This document shows, in pieces, positions 5,183-63,427 of a stretch of DNA of 64,000 nucleotides (position 1 is the stretch's first letter; the number at the start of each line of letters is the position of its first letter). This DNA is from Bacilli bacterium (GTDB lineage: Bacteria > Bacillota_I > Bacilli_A > RF39 > UBA660). The notes under the pieces were generated by a model, which saw nothing but the letters and a program-made list of their open reading frames with translations, was not told where the DNA came from and did no database searches. The position numbers and the translations under genes are program-made. The stretch is taken from positions 4,877-68,876 of the forward strand of contig JBJEXX010000016.1 of NCBI GenBank assembly GCA_051886215.1, read 5' to 3'.

Positions 5183-6238
5183 ATGGAAAAAAAAGAAAAT
5201 AGTAAAATGTACAAAAATATTAAAAAACTATTATTTTTTGCGCTTGTTTTGACTATAGTAGCTTTTATTTTACAGTTAAAATCTAATAATGATAATAAAT
5301 ATTATTTTAGTTATAAAGCTTCTATTCCAGAAGTAAATATTGAAAAGGAAAAAGTTGGTGCATATAGAACTAGTGTTGATTACGATACTGTTTATAAGAA
5401 TCAAAATATATCTAATAAAAATGATGCAGTTGCACTAATAAAAAAAGATTCTAATATTCAAAAGCAAAAATGTAGTAATAAGGATATTTCCAGTATTGAA
5501 AATGAAATAGAAAAAAAATATGATATAGAGGCTGCTAATTTATGTGAATTAGATTTAGAAACTGCTAATAGTATAAAAAATGTGCTTGATAAAATTTATA
5601 ATGAATTTCCTAAAACTAAAGGATTTATTACAAATATATCTTTAGTTAATGCCGAAGATACTACTGGGTATATAGTTGCATTTATGCCGAGTTTTGCCTT
5701 TGCTTCTAGTAATACAATAACTACTTATCCTACGGTTAAAAAGACTCAAGTCTTATTAAATGCATCTTATTTTTTAAATTTAAGTAAATTAAAAACTTCT
5801 ATTTCTAGCGCTGCTTCTAGTGGTTGGTTTGTTCCTAATGCCAATGTTGAATCTTTAATTGCGCATGAATTTGGTCATTATTTATCTTTTTTAATAAATA
5901 TGGATGAATTTAATATGGATAGTATTTTATTGATTGAACAAAATAAATCTTCTACTTATAACAAAATGCTTAGTGCTTATAATAGTGGTGATACTGCACA
6001 AAAAATTATAAAAGAGGCCTATGATAATTATAAAAAAGATACGGGGATGGGTATTAGTTTAATTGATTTTAGAAGTAGTATATCAGAGTATGCAGTAGCA
6101 ACTGATAATAAAGGTAATTATATATATGATGAAACTATTGCGGAAGCGATTGATGACTACTATGCTAATGGTGAAGCTTCTGCGGATGCTAGTAAGTATA
6201 TTGTTAATGTTTTAAAAAATAAACTAGGAGATGAATAA
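5183..6238 (+). CDS. Membrane-anchored putative zinc metalloprotease with HExxH; possibly anthrax-lethal-factor-like (M34/ATLF)
   Basis: N-terminal TM segment. IAHEFGHYLSF is the only HExxH, and the surrounding sequence resembles ATLF-like/PPEP-type metalloproteases (HEFGH). RBS GGAGG upstream. Confidence 0.4.
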   Translation: MEKKENSKMYKNIKKLLFFALVLTIVAFILQLKSNNDNKYYFSYKASIPEVNIEKEKVGAYRTSVDYDTVYKNQNISNKNDAVALIKKDSNIQKQKCSNKDISSIENEIEKKYDIEAANLCELDLETANSIKNVLDKIYNEFPKTKGFITNISLVNAEDTTGYIVAFMPSFAFASSNTITTYPTVKKTQVLLNASYFLNLSKLKTSISSAASSGWFVPNANVESLIAHEFGHYLSFLINMDEFNMDSILLIEQNKSSTYNKMLSAYNSGDTAQKIIKEAYDNYKKDTGMGISLIDFRSSISEYAVATDNKGNYIYDETIAEAIDDYYANGEASADASKYIVNVLKNKLGDE

Positions 6239-22407: not shown

Positions 22408-23097
22408 ATGAAAGATTATACAAGTATAAAAAAGATAATATTAATTGTTGTTATAATTATTGCAATTATTTCTAGTTGTGTATATGGAATTATTTATTAT
22501 AAAAAACAAGAAAAAGAAAGTTTTGAAATAAGTGATAATTTAAATAAACCTAAAATTACAAATACTACTAAAAGTTCAACTGAAGAAAAAAGTAATTTGG
22601 TAGTAGATATAAAAGGAGAAATACAAAATCCAGGAATATATAGAGTAGAAAAAAATACTAGAGTAATAGATGTAATTAATATGGCAGGTGGATTAACAGA
22701 TAATGCTGATACATCAGTTATAAATTTAAGCAAAAAAATAACTGATGAAATGGTTATAATAATTTATTCTAAACAAGAAGTAATTAACTTTGTTGAAACA
22801 AAAAAACAAGAACAAGAAAAATTAAGTATTTGTAATGAACAAGAAGTAGTAAATGGTGCTTGTATAAAAGATAGTATAACTACTACTAATGAAGATAATA
22901 TAACAGGTAAAATAAATATAAATACTGCTACTACGGAGGAACTACAAAATCTTCCAGGAATAGGTGAGGCTAAAGCTAAAAATATAGTTAAATATCGTGA
23001 AGAAAATGGTAATTTTACTAAAATAGAAGATTTAAAAGAAGTAACAGGAATAGGAGATAGTATATATGATCAAATTAAGGACTATATTACTATCTAA
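22408..23097 (+). CDS. comEA: Competence protein ComEA (DNA receptor, tandem helix-hairpin-helix)
   Basis: TM anchor, SLBB-like middle (VDIKGEIQNPGIYRVEKNTRVIDVINMAGG) and a C-terminal HhH pair (ININTATTEELQNLPGIGEAKAKNIVKYREENGNFTKIEDLKEVTGIG). Confidence 0.75.
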   Translation: MKDYTSIKKIILIVVIIIAIISSCVYGIIYYKKQEKESFEISDNLNKPKITNTTKSSTEEKSNLVVDIKGEIQNPGIYRVEKNTRVIDVINMAGGLTDNADTSVINLSKKITDEMVIIIYSKQEVINFVETKKQEQEKLSICNEQEVVNGACIKDSITTTNEDNITGKININTATTEELQNLPGIGEAKAKNIVKYREENGNFTKIEDLKEVTGIGDSIYDQIKDYITI

Positions 23098-25135
23098 TAA
23101 ATTATATATTCTTATATTGATAATAGTAAGTTTTATTACTTTAATTAGAGTGAATATCAATTATAAAAGTAATTTTAAAAATGAAAATATAATAAAAGGT
23201 AAAGTTCAAGACATTTATATAGATGGTCCATATTTAAAAATAACTTTAAAATCAAAAGATAAAATAATATGTAATTATTATTTTAAAAATAAAGAAGAAT
23301 TAAAAAATTTTGATATTAAATTAGGAGATTTAATCGTTTTAAATGGATCGTTAGAAAATCCTAAAAATAATACTATACCTAATGTTTTTAATTATAAAAA
23401 ATATTTAAAATATAATAAAATTTATTATACTTTTAAAGTAGAAAGTTATAAAAAAATAAAAAATAATAATTCTATATTTTATTATTTTAAAAATATAATT
23501 ATTAATCATATAAATAAGTATAAATCATCTTCTTATTTAAAGGCTTTTATTTTGGGAGATACATCATACATAGATAGAAATGTATATAAAGCCTTTCAAG
23601 AAATAGGAATTTCTCATTTATTCGCTATATCCGGAATGCATATTTCTTTTTTATCAGGAATAATTTTATTTATTTTAAAAAAGTTAAAAGTAGAAGAAAA
23701 TAAAAGATATATAATCACTTCTGTAATATTATTTTTATATTTATTAATATGCTTTTCAGCATCTGTATTAAGAAGTTTCCTTTTTTTCTTTTTATTATCA
23801 ATAAATAAAATATATTATTTTTATATTAAGACAATTAATATTTTTATTTTAACTTTATCTATATCTTTATTAATAAATCCTTTTTTTATATATAATATTG
23901 GATTCTTATTTTCTTATATAATAAGTTTCTATTTAATTATTTTAAGTGAATATTTAAAAAAATTAACCAAAATAAAACAAACTATTATAGTATCAATCAT
24001 ATCTTTTTTAGTATCTTTTCCTCTTTCTATATATAATTTTTATCAAGTTAATATTTTAGCTATTATTTATAATTTGTTTTTTGTTCCACTAATATCTATA
24101 TTTTTATTTCCTTTTACTTTGATTACTTTTTTTATTCCGTTTTTAGATAATATTTTATTTTTTATAATAAATATTTTTGAATATATAGTTTTAATTTTAA
24201 ATAAGATAAATATATTTAAAATTATATTAGTAAAACCTTATATGATTGTTATTTTTATTTATTATTTAGTTATTACTTTATTGTTATTAAAACGTCAAAA
24301 AAAATATTTAGTTGTATTTTTATTAATGATATTTTTTCATTATAATGTAAATAACATTTTTTCTAGTAATTATTTAATAATGATAGATGTGGGTCAAGGA
24401 GATAGTATTCTTATTCATTTTAAAAATAAAAATATATTAATAGATACAGGAGGTATTTTTAATAATAATTCTTTTAAAAGAACTAGAACTTATGATTTAA
24501 GTGAAAGTACTTTATGTATGTTAAAATCTTTTGGAATAAGAAAACTAGATTTTTTAATTTTAACTCATGGGGACTCCGATCATATGGGAGAAGCTATTAA
24601 TTTAGTAGAAAACTTCAAAGTAGAGAAAGTTATATTTAACGTAGGAGATTATAATTATTTAGAGGAAGAATTAATAAAAATTTTAAATAAAAAAAGAATT
24701 AAATATTATAAAAATATAGAAAATTTAGATATTAATGGCAGTAAATTATATTTTTTAAATACTAAAATCTATGATAATGAGAATGATAATTCAAATGTTA
24801 TTTATTTTGAATTTAATAATTATAAGTTTCTATTTATGGGAGATGCAGGAATAGAAAAAGAAAAAGATATTCTAGTTAGATATGATTTAAAGGATATAGA
24901 TTTTTTAAAGATAGGTCATCATGGATCTAATACTTCTTCTAGTAAAGAGTTTATAGAAAGTGTTAATCTTAAATATAGTTTAATATCAGTAGGCTCCAAC
25001 AATAGATATGGACATCCAAAGGATAAAGTATTAGATGATTTAAAAAATAGTAAGATTTATAGAACAGATTTAGATGGGAGTATAGAAATAAAATTAAATA
25101 AAAATGGATATAGAATTAGGACATATACGCCATAG
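23066..25135 (+). CDS. comEC: DNA internalisation competence protein ComEC/Rec2 with C-terminal metallo-beta-lactamase domain
   Basis: Polytopic competence domain, then IMIDVGQGDSILIH...LILTHGDSDHMGEA...FMGDAG...GHHGS (MBL motifs). 32-nt overlap with comEA. Confidence 0.8.
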   Translation: MIKLRTILLSNKLYILILIIVSFITLIRVNINYKSNFKNENIIKGKVQDIYIDGPYLKITLKSKDKIICNYYFKNKEELKNFDIKLGDLIVLNGSLENPKNNTIPNVFNYKKYLKYNKIYYTFKVESYKKIKNNNSIFYYFKNIIINHINKYKSSSYLKAFILGDTSYIDRNVYKAFQEIGISHLFAISGMHISFLSGIILFILKKLKVEENKRYIITSVILFLYLLICFSASVLRSFLFFFLLSINKIYYFYIKTINIFILTLSISLLINPFFIYNIGFLFSYIISFYLIILSEYLKKLTKIKQTIIVSIISFLVSFPLSIYNFYQVNILAIIYNLFFVPLISIFLFPFTLITFFIPFLDNILFFIINIFEYIVLILNKINIFKIILVKPYMIVIFIYYLVITLLLLKRQKKYLVVFLLMIFFHYNVNNIFSSNYLIMIDVGQGDSILIHFKNKNILIDTGGIFNNNSFKRTRTYDLSESTLCMLKSFGIRKLDFLILTHGDSDHMGEAINLVENFKVEKVIFNVGDYNYLEEELIKILNKKRIKYYKNIENLDINGSKLYFLNTKIYDNENDNSNVIYFEFNNYKFLFMGDAGIEKEKDILVRYDLKDIDFLKIGHHGSNTSSSKEFIESVNLKYSLISVGSNNRYGHPKDKVLDDLKNSKIYRTDLDGSIEIKLNKNGYRIRTYTP

Positions 25136-25149
25136 AGAGGAGAATTAAA

Positions 25150-26040
25150 ATGAATTATTATGATGAGATAAAAAATAAGATAATAGATAATGAAGTATAT
25201 TCAAGAGTAAAAGATTATTCAAAGGAAAGAAATACTGTTATTACATATTTTGAAATCGGCAAATTATTAAATGAAGCAGGTGGTAAATATGGAGATAATA
25301 TTATTGATGAATATTCTAAAAGATTAGTCGTTGATGTTGGAAAGAAATATAATCGCAGAACATTATTTAGAATGAAGCAATTTTATAATGTGTTTAGTAA
25401 TGAAAAAGTGTCAACGCTGTTGACACAATTAAGTTGGTCACACTACTTGTTATTAATATCATTAAATGATTTTGATGAAATAATATATTATATTAACGTA
25501 GCTAAAGATAACAATTTATCACAAAGACAACTACAAGAAAGAATTAAAAATAATGAGTACAAAAGATTACCTATAGAAACAAGAAATAAAATAACAAATA
25601 ATGAATCGCTTAATATTAAAGATTTAGTACCTAATCCCATATTGATTAGAAATATAAATAATTTTGAAATAATTACGGAAAAAGTACTGCAAAATTTAAT
25701 ACTTGAAGATATTGAATCATTTATGAAAGAATTAGGTAATAATTTTAGTTTCATTGGTAGTAAATATAAAATTAAGATTGGTGATAATTATCATAAAATA
25801 GATTTACTATTATTTAATATAAAATATAATTCATATGTAGTTATTGAATTAAAGATTACTGAATTTAAAGTTGAATACATTTCGCAAGTACAAAAGTATA
25901 TGAACTATATTGATAAAAACTTAAAAGAAATTAGTAATAATAATACTATTGGAATAATTATCTGTAAGAAAGAAAATAGGTTTGTGATTGAGTACTGTTC
26001 TGATGAAAGAATTGCTGTAAGAGAATATCAATTAGTGTGA
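25150..26040 (+). CDS. DUF1016 / YhcG-family PDDEXK nuclease (paralog A)
   Basis: N-terminal LSWSHY block (typical of YhcG/DUF1016) and a C-terminal PD-(D/E)xK core (IDLLLFN...VVIELKITE). RBS GGAG upstream. Confidence 0.7.
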   Translation: MNYYDEIKNKIIDNEVYSRVKDYSKERNTVITYFEIGKLLNEAGGKYGDNIIDEYSKRLVVDVGKKYNRRTLFRMKQFYNVFSNEKVSTLLTQLSWSHYLLLISLNDFDEIIYYINVAKDNNLSQRQLQERIKNNEYKRLPIETRNKITNNESLNIKDLVPNPILIRNINNFEIITEKVLQNLILEDIESFMKELGNNFSFIGSKYKIKIGDNYHKIDLLLFNIKYNSYVVIELKITEFKVEYISQVQKYMNYIDKNLKEISNNNTIGIIICKKENRFVIEYCSDERIAVREYQLV

Positions 26041-26147
26041 TATAATATATATAGGAAGTGAATTATATGTACTATCATGTATCACAAACAAAAAATATTA
26101 ATATTTAGAACCTAGAATTTCAAATCATAATAAACCCTTAATATACT

Positions 26148-26479
26148 TTTCAAATAAAAGAGAAAATGTTTTAGTATATCTAAGCAATGCAGTAGAAAAG
26201 TATTGTAAAGAGAGTAATTTTAATTATAATGGAATTTGGAGCAAATGGGCATCTTACGGATTTACAAAAGATGGGGTGTTAGAAATACAAGAATATTATC
26301 CGAATGCCACTTATGAAACCTACCATGGTGTTAGTGGGTATATATATTCTACTGATAGTATACCAAATGTTGAAAAACAAGAAGATATTCCAAATGCTTT
26401 TCATACTAGCGAGAATGTGGAAGTTACTCATTGTGAATATATAGAAGATGCATATAAAGAAATACAAAAAGAAATATAG
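26148..26479 (+). pseudogene. Start-less open frame / gene remnant of unknown family
   Basis: The frame is open from the TAA at 26145 to 26479 with no ATG, and it reads protein-like sequence (…NGIWSKWASYGFTKDGVLEIQEYYPNATYETYHGVSGYIYSTDS...). Upstream frames from the ATG at 26068 are interrupted by stops. The ORF-track call (26276..26479) uses a TTG start. Confidence 0.25.
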
Positions 26480-26654
26480 TCCTAGTTAAATATGAGGAGT
26501 TTATTAAAACTAGCAAAGATTAGTTATATAAGACTATACAACAAGAGTATGATGAAGCAGTCGTGCATCCAGAATATAGTCATTTTTTAATCAATAAATT
26601 TCCATTTATAAATAAATAAAATAGAACTATCAATTTTGATGGTTTTTTCTTTTG

Positions 26655-27224
26655 TAAATAAAGAAACTATAACCATGTGCGTAACCGTTAGTCTCACATG
26701 GTAATCTAATCATATGGGTGAAGTTATTAATTTTCAAAGTAGAGAAATTAATCTTTAATTGTGGAGATTATAATTATTTAGAACAAAACTTAATTAAAGT
26801 ATTAGATAAAAAGAAAATACAATATTACTCATGTGTTAAAGAATTAAATATAGATAAGTGTAAATTATATTTTTTTAATAATAAAGATTATGATAATGAG
26901 AATAATAATTCAAATGTTATTTATTTTGAATTTAATAATTATAAATTTATATTTATGGGATATGCTGGAATAGATAAGGAAAAATATATATTGAATGAAT
27001 ATAATATATTTGATGTTGACGTATTAAAAGTAGGACATCATGGAAGTAAGATAAGTTCTAGCAAAAGTTTTATTGATGGGGTTAATACAAAATGCTCTGT
27101 AATTAGCGTTGGGGAAAATAATCGCTATGGACATCCGAATGATAGTGTATTAGATAATTTAAATAATTCAAAAATATATAGAACTAATATTGATGGTAGT
27201 ATATTGTTTAAAATAATAAATTAA
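26655..27224 (+). pseudogene. Duplicated, decayed 3' fragment of comEC (MBL-domain C-terminus)
   Basis: The DNA aligns with comEC ~24535-25135, for example ...catatggg(a/t)gaag.tattaatt...aaagtagagaaa(g/t)t and ...gataatgagaat(g/a)ataattcaaatgttatttattttgaatttaataattataa(g/a)ttt.tatttatggga. The HGDSDHMGEA motif is destroyed (SHMVI*) and MGDAG has become MGYAG. There is no start codon in context. Confidence 0.6.
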
Positions 27225-27260
27225 AAATAGAAACATGTACACCATAGAAAGGAGTAAAAA

Positions 27261-28157
27261 ATGGAAGAACAATATTATATAAGTATTAAAGAAAAATTAT
27301 TAAAAAGTGAAATATATGCTAAAGCAAGAGATTATGCAAAAGATAGAAATAAAGTTAAAGTTTACTATGAAATTGGAGAATTATTAAATAAAGCAGGTAA
27401 GGATTATGGTAAAAATATAATAAAACAATACTCTGAAAAGTTGATGATTGAAGTTGGTAAAAAATATAATGAAAGAACGTTATATGGAATGAGAAAATTT
27501 TATGAGCTTTTCAATGACGGAAAATTGAACCCAATGGGTTCAAAATTGAGTTGGAGTCACTTTAGAGAACTTCTAACATTAAAAGATACTGATGAAATAA
27601 AATATTATATAAGTATAAGTGAAGAAAATAATTTAACTAAAAGACAATTACACGAAAGAATAAAAAATAAAGAGTATGCTAGATTAAGTGATGTTGCAAA
27701 AGATAAAATATCAAATAATCATAAAGTAGATTTACCAGATATGATACCTAATCCAATTATTATTAAAGTCAATAATACAATAGAAAAATTAACTGAATAT
27801 GCTTTAAAAGAATTAATATTAAATAACTTAGATGAATTTTTAATTCAATTAGGTAATGGCTTTACGTATATTGGAAATGAGTTTAAAATCAAGTTAGGTG
27901 ATAGATATAACTTTATAGACTTATTCTTATACAACATTAAATATAAATGTTATGTAGTAATAGAATTAAAAGTAACTGAATTGAATTCTAATCATACAGG
28001 ACAGATTCAAAAATATATGAATTATGTAGATAGAAATATAAAGGCCATAGATGAAAATGATACAGTTGGTATTATAATTTGTAAGAAGAATAATCAGTAT
28101 GTAATAGATTACTGCAGTGATAAAAGAATTCTTTCAAGAGAATATGAATTAGTATGA
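27261..28157 (+). CDS. DUF1016 / YhcG-family PDDEXK nuclease (paralog B)
   Basis: Same architecture as 25150..26040 (LSWSHF block; IDLFLYN...VVIELKVTE). The two proteins are roughly 55% identical by eye. RBS GGAG upstream. Confidence 0.7.
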   Translation: MEEQYYISIKEKLLKSEIYAKARDYAKDRNKVKVYYEIGELLNKAGKDYGKNIIKQYSEKLMIEVGKKYNERTLYGMRKFYELFNDGKLNPMGSKLSWSHFRELLTLKDTDEIKYYISISEENNLTKRQLHERIKNKEYARLSDVAKDKISNNHKVDLPDMIPNPIIIKVNNTIEKLTEYALKELILNNLDEFLIQLGNGFTYIGNEFKIKLGDRYNFIDLFLYNIKYKCYVVIELKVTELNSNHTGQIQKYMNYVDRNIKAIDENDTVGIIICKKNNQYVIDYCSDKRILSREYELV

Positions 28158-28184
28158 TATAATGTAAAATATAGAGGTGAATTT

Positions 28185-29339
28185 ATGAATAATATATTTT
28201 TTACGATAGAGGGCTATAAATATTTAATTATGTATAACAATAAAAATTTTGAAATATATAAAGAAATACAAAATGAAATTATAAAATTGTCAGAAGAGGA
28301 AAATAATAAAATAAGAAAAATATTAAATCAAAAATACAATTATATTTATGATAGCCAAATACTTAATGAATTGGTCAATTCAAATGACAAAATAGAAAAT
28401 AAAGATTATATTATAAATATATTAAATTGGTTAGAACAAATTATTCCAGAAAATGATAGATCTAATTTTTATAATAATATTAAAAACCTTCAAACTCAGC
28501 TTAATTTAGATTTTTTAACTTCCGAAAAAAACATAGATTTATCTCAAGAATATTCTAAAGTTGGTGGATATAATACAACTGAAAATAAATTAATAATTTC
28601 TGAAGAAGCTTTAAATAATGAATTGAAAATAGCTAATATGACAAATAATCCAGAGGAATTTTTTTGGAGAAGTTATACCCAACCATTGTTACATGAGCTT
28701 TGCCATATGGCTTCCAGTAAATATGATTCAGAAACAAAAATATCGTTATGTGGATTTGATATATTTCCACCTTCTGGAGAAGGAGATAAAAATAGGGGAT
28801 TAACGGAAGGCTTCACAGAACTTATATCAATGGCAGGAGTACCTGGTACAATAGAAATTGCCTCTGGTTATTATATAGAAGCTTGTTTAATAAATCAATT
28901 GATTCAAGTGATAGGAAAAGACGTGTTTCTTAATGCTTATTTTTCTAATCTAGGAACTAAGCCAATAGAAGAAAAGTTACAAGGATTAATAGATGATGAA
29001 GATAAGTCATTTGAATTATTTAGAAATATTGAACTAAATTTTCAAATTAGAGATTTTGCTGAAAAACAGAATGTTTTAGGTAATATCCAAATGTCTATTT
29101 TAGATTATTTAGAACAGAAAATAGATCTATTATTATCAATAAATAATACAAAAGAAATAAATGAATGTTTAACAATATATGAACAAATGTTAATTACACC
29201 AGAAAAATTAAACACAATGAATAAAAATCCTAAAAATTATTGTGGTTTAGAAGAAAGTTTAATTCAATTTGATACAATAAAACAAAAGTGTAGTAATATT
29301 TTAATAGATAAAAGTGATACTATTCAATCAAAAAAATAA
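28185..29339 (+). CDS. Cytoplasmic HExxH...CG protein (putative zinc metallopeptidase of uncharacterised family), paralog 1
   Basis: No signal peptide. Motif PLLHELCHMASSKYDSETKISLCGFD. It shares the pattern HExxH-xx-S-x-Y-(D/N)-x-E-...-L-CG with the protein at 62516..63427. Confidence 0.4.
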   Translation: MNNIFFTIEGYKYLIMYNNKNFEIYKEIQNEIIKLSEEENNKIRKILNQKYNYIYDSQILNELVNSNDKIENKDYIINILNWLEQIIPENDRSNFYNNIKNLQTQLNLDFLTSEKNIDLSQEYSKVGGYNTTENKLIISEEALNNELKIANMTNNPEEFFWRSYTQPLLHELCHMASSKYDSETKISLCGFDIFPPSGEGDKNRGLTEGFTELISMAGVPGTIEIASGYYIEACLINQLIQVIGKDVFLNAYFSNLGTKPIEEKLQGLIDDEDKSFELFRNIELNFQIRDFAEKQNVLGNIQMSILDYLEQKIDLLLSINNTKEINECLTIYEQMLITPEKLNTMNKNPKNYCGLEESLIQFDTIKQKCSNILIDKSDTIQSKK

Positions 29340-29378: not shown

Positions 29379-29446
29379 AATACATATTTTTTAATATAAT
29401 GCATAATATATAATGTCACGAAAGTGTTCATATAGATTTAGCTTCC

Positions 29447-30028
29447 TTAATGGGAAGCTTTTATTTTTTTATTTATTTTATTTTTTATTTTAATATTATA
29501 TGAATTTATTAATTCAAGAATTTTATTGTCACATTCAAATTCATAAATTATTTTATTATCAAAAATTTTATTAATTATTTTTATATTTTTTAAGATATAA
29601 TCTATTTCTTTTTGAAGAGAATAATCGAATTCTATATCTACTTTAAAACCATCTATTTCTTCACAAATATTGTTATTAATTACTTCTTTAGCGGTATCTA
29701 CATATGCATGAATTAAGCCAGAAGCACCAAGTTTTATTCCACCAAAGTATCTGATAACTAATACTAAAACATTATTTAGGTTTTTCTTTTTTAATAATTC
29801 TAAAATTGGCATGCCTGCGGTACCGCTAGGTTCTCCATCATCACTCATTTTTTCATAAGCATCAGTAATATAAGCAAAACAACAATGAGTAGCGTCTTTA
29901 TATTTATCTCTATATTCTAGAATAAATTTATCTGCAGATTCTTTAGAATCTATTTCTAAAGATATTCCAATAAATTTGCTTTTTTTAATAATTAATTCTT
30001 TTTCTTTATTTTCAATGATTGTATTCAT
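29447..30028 (-). CDS. yigZ: YigZ / IMPACT-family protein (UPF0029)
   Basis: N-terminus ...ELIIKKSKFIGISLEIDSKESADKFILEYRDKYKDATHCCFAYI...GEPSGTAGMPIL... matches the IMPACT/YigZ fold. 193 aa. Confidence 0.7.
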   Translation of the reverse strand: MNTIIENKEKELIIKKSKFIGISLEIDSKESADKFILEYRDKYKDATHCCFAYITDAYEKMSDDGEPSGTAGMPILELLKKKNLNNVLVLVIRYFGGIKLGASGLIHAYVDTAKEVINNNICEEIDGFKVDIEFDYSLQKEIDYILKNIKIINKIFDNKIIYEFECDNKILELINSYNIKIKNKINKKIKASH

Positions 30029-57342: not shown

Positions 57343-58764
57343 ATGGAAAAGAAAAAAACAAATAGCAAAAAAACTACTTCAAAGATTGATACAAGCAAAA
57401 AAGTAGTTGATTCTGTAGAAAAAGATGATAATCTAAAAAAGATTATTGCCGCAATTGTAGTAATTGCATTATTATTGATTGCTTTAATTTCATTTAAAGC
57501 ATGTTCTAAAGAAGAAGAACAACCTAAAAAAGATGAAGAGATAATAGAAAAGGAAGAAGTTGTTGAAGAAACAACAGAACCAGAAGATACTTCATCTTAT
57601 ATACCAACTGCAGTAGTTAATGTAGTAGAAAATAAAACAACTACATCTGCAGCAGCAGTTGTTTCTCAACCAGTTGAGAAGAAAAATTTAGTTATTCGTA
57701 TAAAATTACCAGGAAATTTAGTGGCTGATGGAACTGAAAAAGCTTCAGAAATAGTTTTTGAAGATGAAGAAGGTAACGAAGTTGAAATAACTGATTATAC
57801 AGTAGTTTATACTAATGAAGATGGTACTGAATTAGAAGGTGCTCCAACTGAAATTGGAATATATACAGTAACTGTTACATTTGGAGGTAATGATGAGTAT
57901 GAAGCAAATACTGCTACAGCAACTTTTGAAATAGTAAAAGCACCAATTGCAGTAAGCGATTATGATTCATTCGAGCTTGCTTTAGAAGAAGCTGAAGATG
58001 GTGATACAATTGTTGTTGACTCAGTAATTGAGGATGATATTACAATTGATAAATCTATTATCCTAACAGGTACAGAAGAAAGTTTTATTGCTGGTAAAGT
58101 AGTAGTAACTGCAAGTGATGTGGTTATAGATTCAGTAACTATTAAAGATATTAGTACTGGAGTAGATACAGGAAAAGGAAATGGTATAGCATTAGTTAAA
58201 GTTGAAACTACAGGTGATTTTACATTTACAAATAATACAATTGAATCTATAACTGGTAAAGCATATAATGCATTATTTATTAATGCTGAAGGTATTGTGA
58301 CAATTGAAAACAACACATTCGGAGATACAGATAATAATATATATAATACAATTGAATTATCTTCTGCAACTCCATTAAAAGATGGTAGTTCAATAAGTGG
58401 AAACTATTTTGCTAACGAAGGAAATAGCCATAATCAAATAAATATTTATAACTTTGAAGATGGTGCAACTATTAATCTATCTAATAACACATTTGAATAT
58501 TCTGCAAATGGCTACCGTATTGCTAATATTGGTGGAAAGACTGTTAATATAGATATGACTAATAATACATATAATACTACAGATTCTTATGTTGATTATG
58601 CTGGATTAATTTGCTTCCAACCATGGCCAGGTGAAAGTGTTGATTATTCAAATATGACTATTGATATGACTGGATTAACAAATAATAGTGGTGAAGAACA
58701 AATATATTATTATTATGATGCTACAAGACAAGATGAAATAGTTGAAGCAAATATTATTAGATAA
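57343..58764 (+). CDS. Membrane-anchored surface protein with right-handed parallel beta-helix repeats
   Basis: TM anchor, acidic linker, then repeated ...(V/I)x(V/I)xN(N)TF... and ...SGNYF..., NLSNNTFEYS and DMTNNTYNTT segments typical of pectin-lyase-fold beta-helices. Confidence 0.45.
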   Translation: MEKKKTNSKKTTSKIDTSKKVVDSVEKDDNLKKIIAAIVVIALLLIALISFKACSKEEEQPKKDEEIIEKEEVVEETTEPEDTSSYIPTAVVNVVENKTTTSAAAVVSQPVEKKNLVIRIKLPGNLVADGTEKASEIVFEDEEGNEVEITDYTVVYTNEDGTELEGAPTEIGIYTVTVTFGGNDEYEANTATATFEIVKAPIAVSDYDSFELALEEAEDGDTIVVDSVIEDDITIDKSIILTGTEESFIAGKVVVTASDVVIDSVTIKDISTGVDTGKGNGIALVKVETTGDFTFTNNTIESITGKAYNALFINAEGIVTIENNTFGDTDNNIYNTIELSSATPLKDGSSISGNYFANEGNSHNQINIYNFEDGATINLSNNTFEYSANGYRIANIGGKTVNIDMTNNTYNTTDSYVDYAGLICFQPWPGESVDYSNMTIDMTGLTNNSGEEQIYYYYDATRQDEIVEANIIR

Positions 58765-60075: not shown

Positions 60076-60933
60076 ATGAAACAAGAACAGATATATTTAA
60101 TAAGTAAACTATTTAACAATGAAACAATTAGAACTATTTGGGATAAAGAAAAAGAAAAATATTATATTAGTGTAGTTGATATAGTAGGAATTTTAACTGA
60201 AAGTTCTAATCCTAGACATTATTGGAATGTTTTAAAAGGAAGATTGAAAGAAGAAGGAAATAAAACGGTCACAAATTGTGACCGGTTGAAATTAAAAGCA
60301 GCTGATGGTAAATATCGTTTAACAGATGTTGTTGATATTGAAGGAATGTTTAGAATTATTGAGTCTATTCCCAGTAAAAATGCAGAACCAGTAAAACAAT
60401 GGTTGGCACATTTAGGTAAAGAAAGAATAGATGAAACTTTTGATCCATCAATTAGTATAGAACGAGTTATAGATTTGTATAGATTAAAAGGTTATGATGA
60501 AAATTGGATTACAAAAAGAGTTAAAACTATTCAAGATAGAAAAGAATTGACCGATGTTTGGAAAGAAAATGGAATAAAAGAAAGCTCTGAATACGCAATT
60601 CTTACTAACGAAATATATAAAACTTGGTCCGGCATGACTGTTCAAGAATATAAAGAGTTTAAGGGACTAAGAAAAGAAAGTTTAAGAGATAATATGGATA
60701 ATATAGAACTTATATTAACTGACTTATCTGAAGAAGCAACTAAAAGACTTGCTCAAAAACAAAAGCCTAAAGGAATAGGAGAAAATATAAAAGTTGCGCA
60801 TATAGGTGGCAATGTAGCCAAAGTGGCAAAAGAAACATTAGAAGATAATTTAGGAGAACAAATTATCAGTAATACTAATAAATTAAATTATAAATATATT
60901 GAAGAAAAACATTTAGAAAATAAAAATAGGTAG
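60076..60933 (+). CDS. DinD / Bro-N-domain protein (DNA-damage-inducible protein D-like)
   Basis: F.NETIRTIWDKEKEKYYISVVDIVGILTESSNPRHYWNVLKGRL parallels E. coli DinD (FEEIRHYGTEGQEFWSARELAPLLGYRDWRNFQKVL). C-terminal FKGLRKESLRDNMDNIEL parallels RKGLKKNQKILDHMGSTEL. Confidence 0.55.
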   Translation: MKQEQIYLISKLFNNETIRTIWDKEKEKYYISVVDIVGILTESSNPRHYWNVLKGRLKEEGNKTVTNCDRLKLKAADGKYRLTDVVDIEGMFRIIESIPSKNAEPVKQWLAHLGKERIDETFDPSISIERVIDLYRLKGYDENWITKRVKTIQDRKELTDVWKENGIKESSEYAILTNEIYKTWSGMTVQEYKEFKGLRKESLRDNMDNIELILTDLSEEATKRLAQKQKPKGIGENIKVAHIGGNVAKVAKETLEDNLGEQIISNTNKLNYKYIEEKHLENKNR

Positions 60934-62525
60934 TGGTAAAAGTGATAAAAATAAGACAAATAAAAATATCTATAATAGATAATATTGATTTAATAGAAAA
61001 AGTATCTAAAAAACTTAAAATAAAAAGAGAAGAAATTTCAGATTTAAAAATAGTTAAAAGATCAATTGATGCTAGAGAAAAACCAAATTTATATTATATT
61101 TATGAAGTGGATGTAAAAGTATCTAATGAAGATAAAATATTAAAAAGAAATATAAAGAATGTATCGTATACAGAAGAGATACATTATCAAATACCTAATT
61201 GTGGTAACAAAGAATTAATGAATCGCCCTATTATAGTAGGAAGTGGTCCGGCAGGTTTGTTTTCAGCTTTACTTTTAGCAGAAAAAGGTTATAATCCTTT
61301 AATTATTGAAAGAGGAGATAAAATAGAAGATAGAGTAAATAAAGTAGAAAATTTCTGGAAAACTAATAAATTAGATGAAAACTCTAATGTTCAATTTGGT
61401 GAAGGTGGTGCAGGTACTTTTTCTGATGGTAAATTAAATACTTTGGTAAAAGATAAAGAAAAAAGAGGAGAAAAAGTATTTAAAACTTTTGTTAAGCATG
61501 GTGCTGATGAAAGTATCTTATATGATAATAAGCCTCACATAGGGACTAATCTTTTAAGAAAAGTCATAACTAATTTAAGAAATGAAATTATTTTTTTAGG
61601 AGGGGAATTTAGATATAATTCAATTCTTACTGATATAATATATGAACATAATAAAGTTAAAAGTATTATCATTAATGATAAAGAAACAATTGATTGTGAT
61701 GTGTTAGTTCTAGCTATTGGTCATAGTGCTAGAGATACTTTTGAAATGCTTCATAAAAATAATATTCAAATGAAGGCAAAACCATTTGCGATTGGAGTTA
61801 GAGTTCAGCATAAACAAGATATAATAAGTAAAAATCAATATGGAGACAATTACAAATTATTACCACCAGCAAGCTATAAATTAACGTATAAATCTAAAAA
61901 TAATAGAGGAGTTTATTCATTTTGTATGTGCCCAGGAGGATATGTAGTTAATGCCTCAAGCGAAAATAATAAATTAGTCATAAATGGTATGAGTAATAAC
62001 GAAAGAGAAAGTGAGAATGCTAATTCTGCTATTATAGTAACCGTATCTCCAGATGATTTTGGACATCATCCTTTAGATGGAATTAAATTTCAAAGAGATT
62101 TAGAAACTAAAGCTTTTAAAATAGGAAATGGAAATATTCCTACTCAAACATTAAAAGATTTTTATGAAAATAAAAAAACTACAAAGTTGGGTAGTATAAA
62201 ACCAATATTTAAAGGTAATTATACTCTCACTAATTTAAATGAAATATTACCAAGTTATATATGTTCATCTTTAAAAGAAGCTTTTCCTTATTTTGAAACA
62301 AAAATAAAAGGTTTTTCAGATCCTAATACTATAATATCCGCAATAGAAAGTAGAACTTCATCTCCAATAAGAATAGAAAGAGACGAAGAATATCAAACTA
62401 ACATTAAAGGAATTTATCCAACAGGAGAAGGTAGTGGTTATGCAGGAGGTATTACAACTTCAGCAATAGATGGAATAAAAGTTGCGGAACAAATAATTAA
62501 AACATATAAAAAAAACTATTTATAA
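60933..62525 (+). CDS. FAD-dependent protein (COG2509-like NAD(FAD)-utilising dehydrogenase)
   Basis: IIVGSGPAGLFSALLLAEKGYNPLIIERG dinucleotide-binding motif about 95 aa from the N-terminus. About 530 aa, an architecture typical of COG2509. Confidence 0.6.
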   Translation: MVKVIKIRQIKISIIDNIDLIEKVSKKLKIKREEISDLKIVKRSIDAREKPNLYYIYEVDVKVSNEDKILKRNIKNVSYTEEIHYQIPNCGNKELMNRPIIVGSGPAGLFSALLLAEKGYNPLIIERGDKIEDRVNKVENFWKTNKLDENSNVQFGEGGAGTFSDGKLNTLVKDKEKRGEKVFKTFVKHGADESILYDNKPHIGTNLLRKVITNLRNEIIFLGGEFRYNSILTDIIYEHNKVKSIIINDKETIDCDVLVLAIGHSARDTFEMLHKNNIQMKAKPFAIGVRVQHKQDIISKNQYGDNYKLLPPASYKLTYKSKNNRGVYSFCMCPGGYVVNASSENNKLVINGMSNNERESENANSAIIVTVSPDDFGHHPLDGIKFQRDLETKAFKIGNGNIPTQTLKDFYENKKTTKLGSIKPIFKGNYTLTNLNEILPSYICSSLKEAFPYFETKIKGFSDPNTIISAIESRTSSPIRIERDEEYQTNIKGIYPTGEGSGYAGGITTSAIDGIKVAEQIIKTYKKNYL

Positions 62526-63427
62526 TATAAATTATTATCAAAAGTTTTTATAATGTTAATAATTTTATTATTTAGTTTTTTTATTTTGTTAATTGTAAAC
62601 CATTTTATCTTTTTATTATTAATACTATGTTCTAATTCAAAAACTTGATTAAGATATTCCGTTAATAAATGATAACTATTATTTATTCCTGTAATATCAT
62701 TAAACCATTTATCAATATCATTTATATTACCATTAATTCTTAGTGAATTAAGAGTTGATATAAAAGTTTTATTATTAAGTAAAGTTTTACAAATATATAC
62801 TTCTAAATAATAAGAATTAGATAAATACTTATTATTAATTTCTCCATTTATAGAATATAAAGTATTTTGAATAGCAATATTACTTATACTATTGTAATCG
62901 ATATTTTTAATTATATTAATAATATCTGTTGTTTGATTTGTATTTAAAATTTCTTCTAAAATAGAATTGTTATCTTTTTCTATTGGATTTAAATTTAAAT
63001 CATAATTAATATATGAAAGTCCACATCTAAGTTTTATTATATTATCTTCTATAATTATTTCGTTATTATAAGAATTAATTGCGTGATTATATTCATGAAT
63101 TAAATTATCTAATAAATTAATTAAACTTATATTTTCATAATTATTAATAACAATACGTTTTTTTGTTATTATTTTATCATTTTCCTTAACTGGAATACTT
63201 TGATAAAAAGCTAAGATTCTTTGATTGGTTTTATTACTTATAAATATTGGAACATTAGAAAAAGTATTGATAATTAATCTTTCTTTATCAAATCCATATT
63301 TTGTGATAAATGCATAAATAACTATTCCCAATAAATGTGATATATTAGATGGATAATTATATTTAATAGAAATTGTATTCGCAATATCATTATATTTATT
63401 AATTGTCTCATTTATATTATTATTCAT
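62516..63427 (-). CDS. Cytoplasmic HExxH...CG protein, paralog 2 of 28185..29339
   Basis: LIHEYNHAINSYNNEIIIEDNIIKLRCGL shares the HExxH-xx-S-Y-(N/D)-xE...L-CG pattern with paralog 1. No signal peptide. Converges on and overlaps the upstream + strand gene by 10 nt. Confidence 0.4.
   Translation of the reverse strand: MNNNINETINKYNDIANTISIKYNYPSNISHLLGIVIYAFITKYGFDKERLIINTFSNVPIFISNKTNQRILAFYQSIPVKENDKIITKKRIVINNYENISLINLLDNLIHEYNHAINSYNNEIIIEDNIIKLRCGLSYINYDLNLNPIEKDNNSILEEILNTNQTTDIINIIKNIDYNSISNIAIQNTLYSINGEINNKYLSNSYYLEVYICKTLLNNKTFISTLNSLRINGNINDIDKWFNDITGINNSYHLLTEYLNQVFELEHSINNKKIKWFTINKIKKLNNKIINIIKTFDNNLYYK

Follow-up and report, generated by a model that had tools for sequence, protein, structure and literature searches.

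Two distinct families of gluzincin-like putative metallopeptidases in uncultured gut bacteria, one of them often encoded alongside a Y-family DNA polymerase

We analysed a stretch of 64,000 nucleotides from a Bacilli bacterium (contig JBJEXX010000016.1, positions 4,877 to 68,876; hereafter the window), which has a G+C content of 24.5% and carries two open reading frames (ORFs) for proteins with an HExxH motif: ORF A of 384 amino acids and ORF B of 303 amino acids. An earlier note on this DNA had taken the two for paralogues from one metallopeptidase family, in accessory positions and either toxin-like or regulatory. Our results favour a different reading, in which A and B probably represent two distinct, unnamed and lineage-restricted families of cytoplasmic, gluzincin-like putative metallopeptidases, A serving as a general module and B being tied to the locus of a Y-family DNA polymerase (polY). 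All relatives found come from uncultured, AT-rich metagenome-assembled genomes (MAGs) or metagenomes of animal gut or rumen, assigned to Bacilli, Erysipelotrichaceae, 'Mollicutes' and Mycoplasmatota; A itself is 100% identical to a hypothetical protein from a 'Bacilli bacterium' MAG. The ORF listing reproduced the previously given coordinates of both genes exactly, and a hydropathy scan agreed with the prediction that both proteins lack a signal peptide, finding no transmembrane segment either (maximum 19-residue Kyte–Doolittle mean of 1.2 for A and 1.1 for B).

The assignment is carried by the pattern of conservation. Across 107 family-A members, whose identity falls to 21–25%, the sole invariant residues are H170, E171 and H174 of the HExxH motif, G190 and E208, with S177 and Y229 conserved in at least 90% of members; the commonest spacing in this family is HExxH-x33-EG. 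HExxH is kept in 227 of 229 unique family-A sequences and in all 281 unique family-B sequences. The invariant residues of B include H111, E112, H115, S119, R134, G136, E158 and E159; HExxHxxxS and RxG are present in each of the 281 sequences and EE[IL] in 269. The AlphaFold2 models that had been suggested for the two proteins are confident and place HExxH and the Glu on consecutive helices: in both, the motif lies in the middle of a long helix, followed by a meander of three to four strands with the invariant Gly and then by the helix with the invariant Glu. Judged by conservation, a Glu third ligand on the following helix is thus a candidate in A (E208) as well as in B (E158/E159). This layout fits the description of minimal zincins, in which the second helix supplies the His residues and the third a Glu (PMC3482391). 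HExxH with a Glu on the next helix is, as far as conservation and predicted structure can indicate, the gluzincin pattern in both families, and is shared with the gluzincins of clan MA(E) such as thermolysin (M4), the M1 aminopeptidases and the clostridial neurotoxins (M27), although no sequence or Foldseek similarity of A or B to these enzymes was detected. At the level of motifs, we take 'GLTEGFTE' of A to recall the Glu helix 'WLNEGFA' of M1 enzymes, and the HExxH, beta hairpin and 'EE' of B are presumably arranged in a way reminiscent of the botulinum light chain.

By this scheme, zinc would be held by the two His residues of HExxH and by the Glu on the next helix, that is E208, 33 residues on, in A and E158 or E159 in B. 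The Glu of HExxH would act as general base to activate water for peptide-bond cleavage, a conserved Tyr on a further helix (SxYY[IL]E, see below) may assist catalysis, and both proteins would function as endopeptidases in the cytoplasm.

Whether as single sequences or as family profiles, A and B gave no match in Pfam (2025 copy), NCBIfam (2026), PHROG, PADLOC or the PDB sequences. The earlier note had been unable to name a metallopeptidase family for them, and this stands: no match to A or B at E ≤ 10 was obtained with hidden Markov models (HMMs) for ATLF-like (M34), M48 or DUF4157 proteins (most matches weaker than about E 0.1 are removed by the HMMER filters), or with PF06114 (ImmA/IrrE, M78), which produced sub-threshold matches in two of 107 A members and in none of 44 B members. 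When the 107 A members were scanned singly, recurrent sub-threshold Pfam matches fell almost only on zincins, namely SprT-like (16 members), Peptidase_M91 (12), WLM (9), Tox-MPTase3 (5), DUF4344 (4), DUF6782 (4), M78 (2) and MPTase-PolyVal (1). None of the matches to SprT-like (PF10263), WLM (PF08325), Peptidase_M91 or Tox-MPTase3 rose above the gathering score, the best A-member E-values for the first two being 5.6e-4 and 0.015, and neither SprT-like nor WLM was matched by the window proteins or by any B member. Profile searches of the PDB with three family alignments (A1, A2 and A3) returned nothing relevant, and Foldseek matched neither model to a solved peptidase. Since membership of a named family was found by HMM for neither protein, A and B are filed here as new families of zincin-like putative metallohydrolases, classed by conservation and predicted helices and without a fold match in Foldseek. 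Both are sizeable: 866 family-A clusters at 50% identity (E ≤ 1e-3) were found when 1.84 billion cluster representatives were searched with a profile, and family B comprises at least 869 proteins. Two families with a complete and invariant zincin signature have therefore not been captured by the resources named above.

Among known systems, the minimal zincins (Wss1/WLM, SprT, NleD-HopH1 M91 and Tox-MPTase1–5; PMC3482391) resemble A and B in having an HExxH helix with a downstream ligand on a small alpha+beta core. It is exactly to these Pfam families that A members recurrently match below threshold, and the A domain likewise serves as a building block of giant effector-like proteins (see below). 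Apart from the missing gathering-score and PDB matches, they differ in that the third ligand of A would be a Glu 33 residues downstream, whereas that of SprT/SPRTN is a nearby His, and in that A and B carry a large C-terminal helical bundle, to which A adds an extra N-terminal unit.

That A and B form two families, at most very remotely related, is indicated by the comparisons made between them, and paralogy is not demonstrable from their sequences. BLASTP left the motif regions unaligned, its best E of 0.56 falling elsewhere in the proteins, homologues in a collection of 5.8 billion proteins numbered 103 for A and 302 for B with no overlap between the lists, and neither family HMM matched the other family at E ≤ 10. 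Alignment of the two family alignments by hhalign recovered the HExxH helix only (E 0.032, probability 1.6%); with a 121-sequence A profile (effective number of sequences, Neff, 6.6) it covered 21 columns (E 0.015, probability 3%), and with predicted secondary structure added the probability was 3.8%. Because HExxH had been the criterion by which the two proteins were selected, the regions downstream of the invariant Gly were tested separately. The best local match there was between 'SGYYIE' of A and 'SNSYYLE' of B (SxYY[IL]E, P 0.015). A chained, order-sensitive profile alignment with the HExxH helix masked scored 18.7 against 15.2 ± 1.7 for block-shuffled B, a score reached or exceeded by 10 of 200 shuffles. 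Given this P value and this number of shuffles, the sequences offer only marginal evidence that homology extends past the motif, and the two proteins essentially do not align outside it. Of the shared motif described in the earlier note, the HExxH part is real, with three occurrences in the 20,073 residues of window ORFs against 0.14 expected from composition, but the motif as written needs one-residue indels (SS-K-Y-D-S-E in A versus NS-Y-N-N-E in B; SL-CG in A versus KL-R-CG in B). Its 'CG' is not a family feature, as the Gly alone is conserved: the preceding residue is Cys in 95, Ser in 66 and Thr in 16 family-A sequences, and Thr in 271 of 281 and Cys in five family-B sequences.

The genomic context of family B was examined in 84 loci, made up of 80 metagenome loci, three contigs found by exact-sequence look-up (L008, L010 and L012) and the window. 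A gene for a Y-family polymerase (PF00817 and PF11799) adjoins B on the same strand in 34 of the 84, and it lies within 2 kb upstream of B in 22 of the 54 loci that have at least 1.5 kb of upstream sequence. Three arrangements occur, polY (about 490 amino acids)-yolD-B, polY (about 400 amino acids)-B and B-polY, and these belong to three B sub-clades with 44–55% identity, which suggests that the association has been maintained and is not simply a single gene order passed on by descent. The gene of about 145 amino acids between polY and B, seen in 20 loci, encodes an N-terminal arm 'RAAQFxPFAAL' and has a weak match to YolD (PF08863, E 1.4e-4, below the gathering score). In 14 of 15 polY-yolD-B operons the sequence AAC-N4-GT[AT][TC] stands 39–49 nucleotides before the polY start, against 0.016 expected per interval of that size. 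The element (for example CAAACAAATGTTTGA) is positioned between hexamers resembling -35 and -10 sites, and we take it to resemble an AT-shifted form of the Firmicutes LexA (Cheo) box GAAC-N4-GTTC. Proteolysis controls Pol V activity, through self-cleavage of UmuD and through Lon and ClpXP. For PolY-YolD, a role as the Gram-positive equivalent of Pol V has been put forward (PMC6511836). The B gene resembles the UmuD/UmuC and PolY-YolD systems (PMC6511836, PMC12926913) in sharing its locus with genes for a Y-family polymerase and a YolD-like protein, downstream of an operator like a LexA box; B differs from UmuD in being an HExxH protein of its own, with no relation to UmuD's S24 serine peptidase domain. 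No HExxH protein, protease or metallopeptidase is given as a PolY partner in that proposal or in a 2026 polymerase survey (PMC12926913), the SRAP-like group (SOS response associated peptidase superfamily) being the sole peptidase-type partner group named in the latter; both surveys were based on complete genomes of cultured species (PMC6511836, PMC12926913).

Directly downstream of B there is often a gene for a ClpX homologue of about 570 amino acids (E 5e-40 to ClpX structures), with 270 N-terminal residues, an acidic low-complexity linker among them, where a zinc-finger domain would be usual, and with the tripeptide VGF kept. The VGF presumably corresponds to an IGF-type ClpP-docking loop, and its retention suggests that the protein probably works with ClpP; it may be the housekeeping ClpX of this lineage or a specialized paralogue. 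We had considered this AAA+ gene as one half of a split FtsH-like protease with B, an idea that was dropped once the gene proved to be a ClpX homologue with VGF. Other B loci have an uncharacterized gene of about 450 amino acids with a GGGKDS motif downstream, followed by murD.

From this context, DNA damage would induce B along with PolY and YolD, and B would most likely act within DNA-damage tolerance, on a part of that machinery or on one of its products, either in processing or turnover of YolD or PolY or on DNA–protein crosslinks. The occurrence of B in polY-yolD operons with LexA-like boxes in other genomes also gives a hint in favour of the 'regulatory protease' of the earlier note. A more specific version, which we advance tentatively and regard as somewhat unlikely, makes B a dedicated metalloprotease subunit or regulator of the Gram-positive Pol V-like mutasome, one that is co-induced with PolY and YolD upon DNA damage and that processes or turns over YolD or PolY or trims DNA–protein crosslinks so that the co-encoded polymerase can bypass what is left by translesion synthesis (TLS), with A as a remote relative that is also used as a type VII effector module. 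If true, the first activity would take the place of UmuD self-cleavage in trans, and the second would be the bacterial equivalent of the SPRTN/Wss1–TLS coupling of eukaryotes. In either form, the link to polY-yolD makes B a candidate proteolytic part of the Gram-positive equivalent of Pol V, which is poorly understood.

Several observations weigh against the reading of A and B as gluzincin-like peptidases with B tied to polY. In the window there is no polY, yolD, clpX-like gene or LexA-like box near B; the box GAAC-N4-GTTC was found nowhere in the window, and a relaxed form of it was likewise absent upstream of B. By comparison with its orthologues, the window B is a family member detached from the polY operon, and its putative present role is extrapolated from them. 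The clpX-like and murD parts of the B neighbourhood may reflect inherited synteny and not function. Among 44 B members there was no match to any zincin family, sub-threshold matches included, and the zincin assignment of B draws on its motif, its predicted helix positions and the B-like domain of the giant protein P0235 (see below). For A, no conserved partner, substrate or immunity gene turned up: the ORFs that follow it in other loci (122, 168, 230 and 248 amino acids) are mutually unrelated and absent from the window, those of 122, 230 and 248 amino acids having no Pfam match and that of 168 amino acids no Pfam family on record.

Family A is confined to the same kind of genome, all 32 of its matches among GTDB species genomes being animal-gut or rumen MAGs (labelled Bacilli, Bacillota/Firmicutes, Erysipelotrichaceae, Clostridia (one), Mollicutes, Mycoplasma, Mycoplasmatota, Candidatus Coprovivens and 'bacterium' (one)). 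It occurs in three forms, as a soluble single gene, tail-anchored and as a module in giant proteins, which suggests that A is a putative general-purpose protease module. Many soluble members start after the first 58 or so residues of A. The tail-anchored members have 507–619 amino acids, with a C-terminal extension of 150–250 residues that ends in a single hydrophobic helix; examples are P0096, P0232, P0237 and P0306, and the genes at L025 7992..9602, L026 3914..5551 and L028 7929..9788. An extended -10 element (TRTGnTATAAT) precedes most family-A genes about 20 nucleotides before the ribosome-binding site (RBS), and no LexA-like box, even in relaxed form, was found upstream of them. A would be a constitutively expressed putative protease with a promoter of its own, and this lineage would also have joined its fold to a membrane anchor and to secreted effectors.

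The positions of A and B had been described as accessory, which our results do not support: both genes are single-copy and chromosomal, tblastn against 72,556 plasmids and 50,697 phage genomes gave no match for either, and synteny is kept within sub-clades. IMG/VR contained one family-A relative (L126 7313..8461, IMGVR_UViG_3300022753_002054, 58% identity) and no family-B relative. Each A locus has one A copy and no B gene within 8 kb. The context of A differs between clades and is conserved inside each; the order comEC-DUF1016-A is found in the window and in L020 and L021, SecA is upstream of A in three loci, and one sub-clade has genes for an RNase HIII-like protein, a membrane protein, thioredoxin and UPF0029 (divergent), followed by A and uvrC. 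The uvrC gene directly downstream of A in six loci was rejected as independent evidence and treated as inherited synteny of that sub-clade, because the entire surrounding gene order is identical. A UPF0029/YigZ gene adjoins A in eight loci, divergent and upstream (about 70 nucleotides) in seven and convergent and downstream in the window, and in L020 it lies 3.7 kb upstream of A; the adjacency might be meaningful.

Two giant proteins contain the A domain. In P0250 (1397 amino acids; L127 2236..6429) it is C-terminal (residues 1026–1385), and in P0235 (2118 amino acids; L001 763..7119) it spans residues 1306–1632 (368 bits), directly preceded by a B-like domain at 998–1196 (family-B HMM, 23 bits, E 1.6e-9, in this single sequence). 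The B-like alignment extends from the N-terminal helices to HELCH...S, SGF and 'IEEALN', the last of which retains the Glu pair. This fusion suggests that A and B domains can act together; it does not imply common ancestry. A Gly-rich hydrophobic middle region is common to both giant proteins. Upstream of P0235 are two DUF4176 genes, and upstream of P0250 four small helical genes, one with a W-x-G-like motif. DUF4176 (Ltc) proteins are chaperones specific for LXG toxins exported by type VIIb secretion (T7SS, type VII secretion system) (PMC12478183), and it is in these upstream genes that P0235 and P0250 are like such toxins. They differ in that the Pfam LXG model did not match their N-termini at E ≤ 5, so that 'T7SS effector' is a putative designation taken from genomic context. 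As a B-like and an A domain fused in a chaperone-flanked giant protein, the same modules appear to be deployed as putative secreted effectors. In addition, P0250 has a further HEFGH domain near residue 790, and P0235 has a C-terminal region of about 490 residues that ends in a motif, 'SGHAIVITG', recalling papain-like peptidases; none of these modules, the middle region included, has a Pfam match.

The reading of the earlier note, a paralogue pair of one metallopeptidase family in accessory positions with toxin-like or regulatory function, can point to the common HExxHxxxS...G pattern, to the second collinear motif SxYY[IL]E and to the presence of both domain types in P0235. The A core without its optional N-terminal unit is also similar in length to B (about 315 versus 300 amino acids), and secondary-structure elements follow a similar order in both, with three helices, a beta hairpin, the HExxH helix, the beta meander with the Gly, then the helices that bear the Glu and the YY, and lastly a helical bundle. 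We nevertheless consider it unlikely in view of the failure of BLASTP and of cross-family HMMs to connect the two, hhalign probabilities that stayed at 1.6–3.8% even with predicted secondary structure, a masked alignment that surpassed only 190 of 200 block shuffles, the quite different genomic contexts of A and B and the absence of either family from plasmids and phages. At the other extreme, HExxH could be incidental in non-enzymatic helical proteins, such as scaffolds or adaptors, as might be argued from the lack of a structural match to a solved peptidase and of any family match for B. The odds of this seem remote to us when His, Glu, His and the downstream Glu are invariant at identities down to 21%, the motif survives in the distant P0235 domains and the weak matches of A are specific to zincin families.

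The 'toxin-like' suggestion finds a hint in the A and B-like domains of effector-like giant proteins with DUF4176 genes, and the window A and B might themselves be secreted or injected effectors or toxins, for instance type VII substrates. The A domain does occupy the C-terminal toxin slot of P0250, P0235 does stand behind two chaperone genes, A members have sub-threshold matches to Peptidase_M91 (NleD-type effectors) and Tox-MPTase3, and zincin toxin domains are familiar from polymorphic toxins (PMC3482391). Such a role is nonetheless improbable for the window proteins, which are stand-alone, have no LXG/WXG-type N-terminal domain and are adjoined by no chaperone (DUF4176), targeting-factor (Lap) or immunity gene; the genes downstream of A vary from locus to locus, the window genes themselves exist in single copy, keep their synteny inside sub-clades and have a constitutive-looking promoter, and no T7SS gene was seen in the 64 kb of the window. 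Still less can be said for ImmA/IrrE-type (M78) anti-repressor proteases, which cleave a repressor after DNA damage and, as cytoplasmic HExxH proteases with a DNA-damage link, are not unlike B. In their favour are the DNA-damage-type operons of B in other genomes, the PF06114 matches of two A members and a weak profile match of A residues 13–81 (28221..28427) to the winged-helix domain of ArlR/OmpR (E 0.15–0.2, with an 'L(S/T)xxE' helix pattern). The last was not corroborated by Foldseek, which found neither a winged-helix nor an IrrE match, and is a lead only. We judge this identity very unlikely: the window proteins and 44 B members do not match PF06114, B in polY operons appears as a LexA-controlled target and not a sensor, and, as the earlier note had remarked for the window, no helix-turn-helix (HTH; XRE/ImmR-type) gene is adjacent to A or B there or recurs in about 120 related loci.

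Table 1. Positions of ORFs A and B, their proposed functional residues and associated features (window coordinates unless a locus is named)
Feature	Location	Strand	Basis or remark
ORF A, family-A HExxH protein	28185..29339	+	AlphaFold2 mean pLDDT (predicted local distance difference test) 88.9
A residues 1–58, optional N-terminal four-strand beta unit and helix	28185..28358	+	AlphaFold2
A HELCH (H170, E171, H174), two proposed zinc ligands and catalytic base	28692..28706	+	helix 156–176; codons checked
A Gly190, invariant, in beta meander after HExxH helix	28752..28754	+	conservation
A GLTEGFTE, E208 proposed third zinc ligand (HExxH-x33-E), helix 204–218	28797..28820	+	invariant in 107 members
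A SGYYIE (S227, Y229, E232), second motif collinear with B	28863..28880	+	motif comparison
Extended -10 element of A, TGATATAAT	28155..28163	+	TGA doubles as stop codon of the DUF1016 gene upstream
RBS of A, AGAGGTG	28173..28179	+	sequence
Terminator-like hairpin and T run, 100 nucleotides after A stop	29440..29459	+	overlaps 3' end of convergent UPF0029 gene
UPF0029/YigZ gene next to A	29447..30028	-	also in L029-L031, L037-L039, L041
ORF B, family-B HExxH protein	62516..63427	-	AlphaFold2 mean pLDDT 89.4, pTM (predicted template modelling score) 0.89
B HEYNH (H111, E112, H115), helix 102–120	63083..63097	-	281/281 unique sequences; codons checked
B Gly136 in R-x-G (invariant R134, G136; x is Cys here)	63020..63022	-	conservation
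B E158-E159, start of helix 155–174, candidate third zinc ligand	62951..62956	-	invariant
B SNSYYLE (S203, Y206), counterpart of A SGYYIE	62801..62821	-	motif comparison
AAC-N4-GT[AT][TC] box	L010, L048, L056-L058, L060, L067, L072, L074, L078, L083, L089, L091, L113		
ClpX-like gene downstream of B	L112 829..2589; L010 7015..8745		about 15 more loci
Duplicated region (3' end only): comEC	23066..25135		
Duplicated region: DUF1016	25150..26040		
Duplicated region: comEC fragment	26718..27224		
Duplicated region: DUF1016	27261..28157		

The surroundings of both genes had been described correctly, A at the end of a comEC/DUF1016 region and B convergent to a flavoprotein gene. On the 5' side of A are comEA, comEC and two DUF1016 (YhcG-type PD-(D/E)xK) genes, and the UPF0029/YigZ gene is convergent with it; the gene convergent with B encodes an FAD-dependent protein and overlaps it by 10 nucleotides. 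An SSPI-like small gene (PF14098; 30162..30431, minus strand) lies 0.8 kb from A, and in six of the 84 B loci, including L008 (5726..5938) and L046, a homologue with 41% identity immediately precedes B on its strand. This pairing is either a coincidence or the mark of a small protein that tends to travel with A and B genes.

The third HExxH protein of the window is an orphan of 351 amino acids (5183..6238, plus strand). Its N-terminus has a membrane or signal anchor (KKLLFFALVLTIVAFILQL), residue 228 marks the position of 'IAHEFGHYLSF', and 'ETIAEAIDDYY' is found close to the C-terminus. It had no Pfam match (E ≤ 0.01) and no PDB match; its neighbours are a Big_2-domain gene on one side and a weakly trypsin-like one on the other, which suggests that it is probably a secreted or surface metalloprotease. 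An ORF of 473 amino acids (57343..58764, plus strand) between the rml (dTDP-rhamnose) and flavoprotein genes likewise has no Pfam match.

Upstream of A, an old tandem duplication of about 2.12 kb (24614..27719, 75–77% DNA identity) involved the 3' end of comEC and the DUF1016 gene and left a comEC fragment of 168 amino acids and two DUF1016 copies, L020 and L021 having a single comEC-DUF1016-A. DUF1016 matches the PADLOC candidate defence family PDC-S02. Near B, a gene for a Bro-N domain protein (60076..60933, plus strand) matches PADLOC PDC-S13 (E 1e-113) and phrog_15286 (E 1e-104); it stands between two genes for FAD-dependent proteins, HI0933-like upstream and PF21688 (FAD-depend_C) downstream, and is possibly a phage- or defence-related gene that was inserted there.

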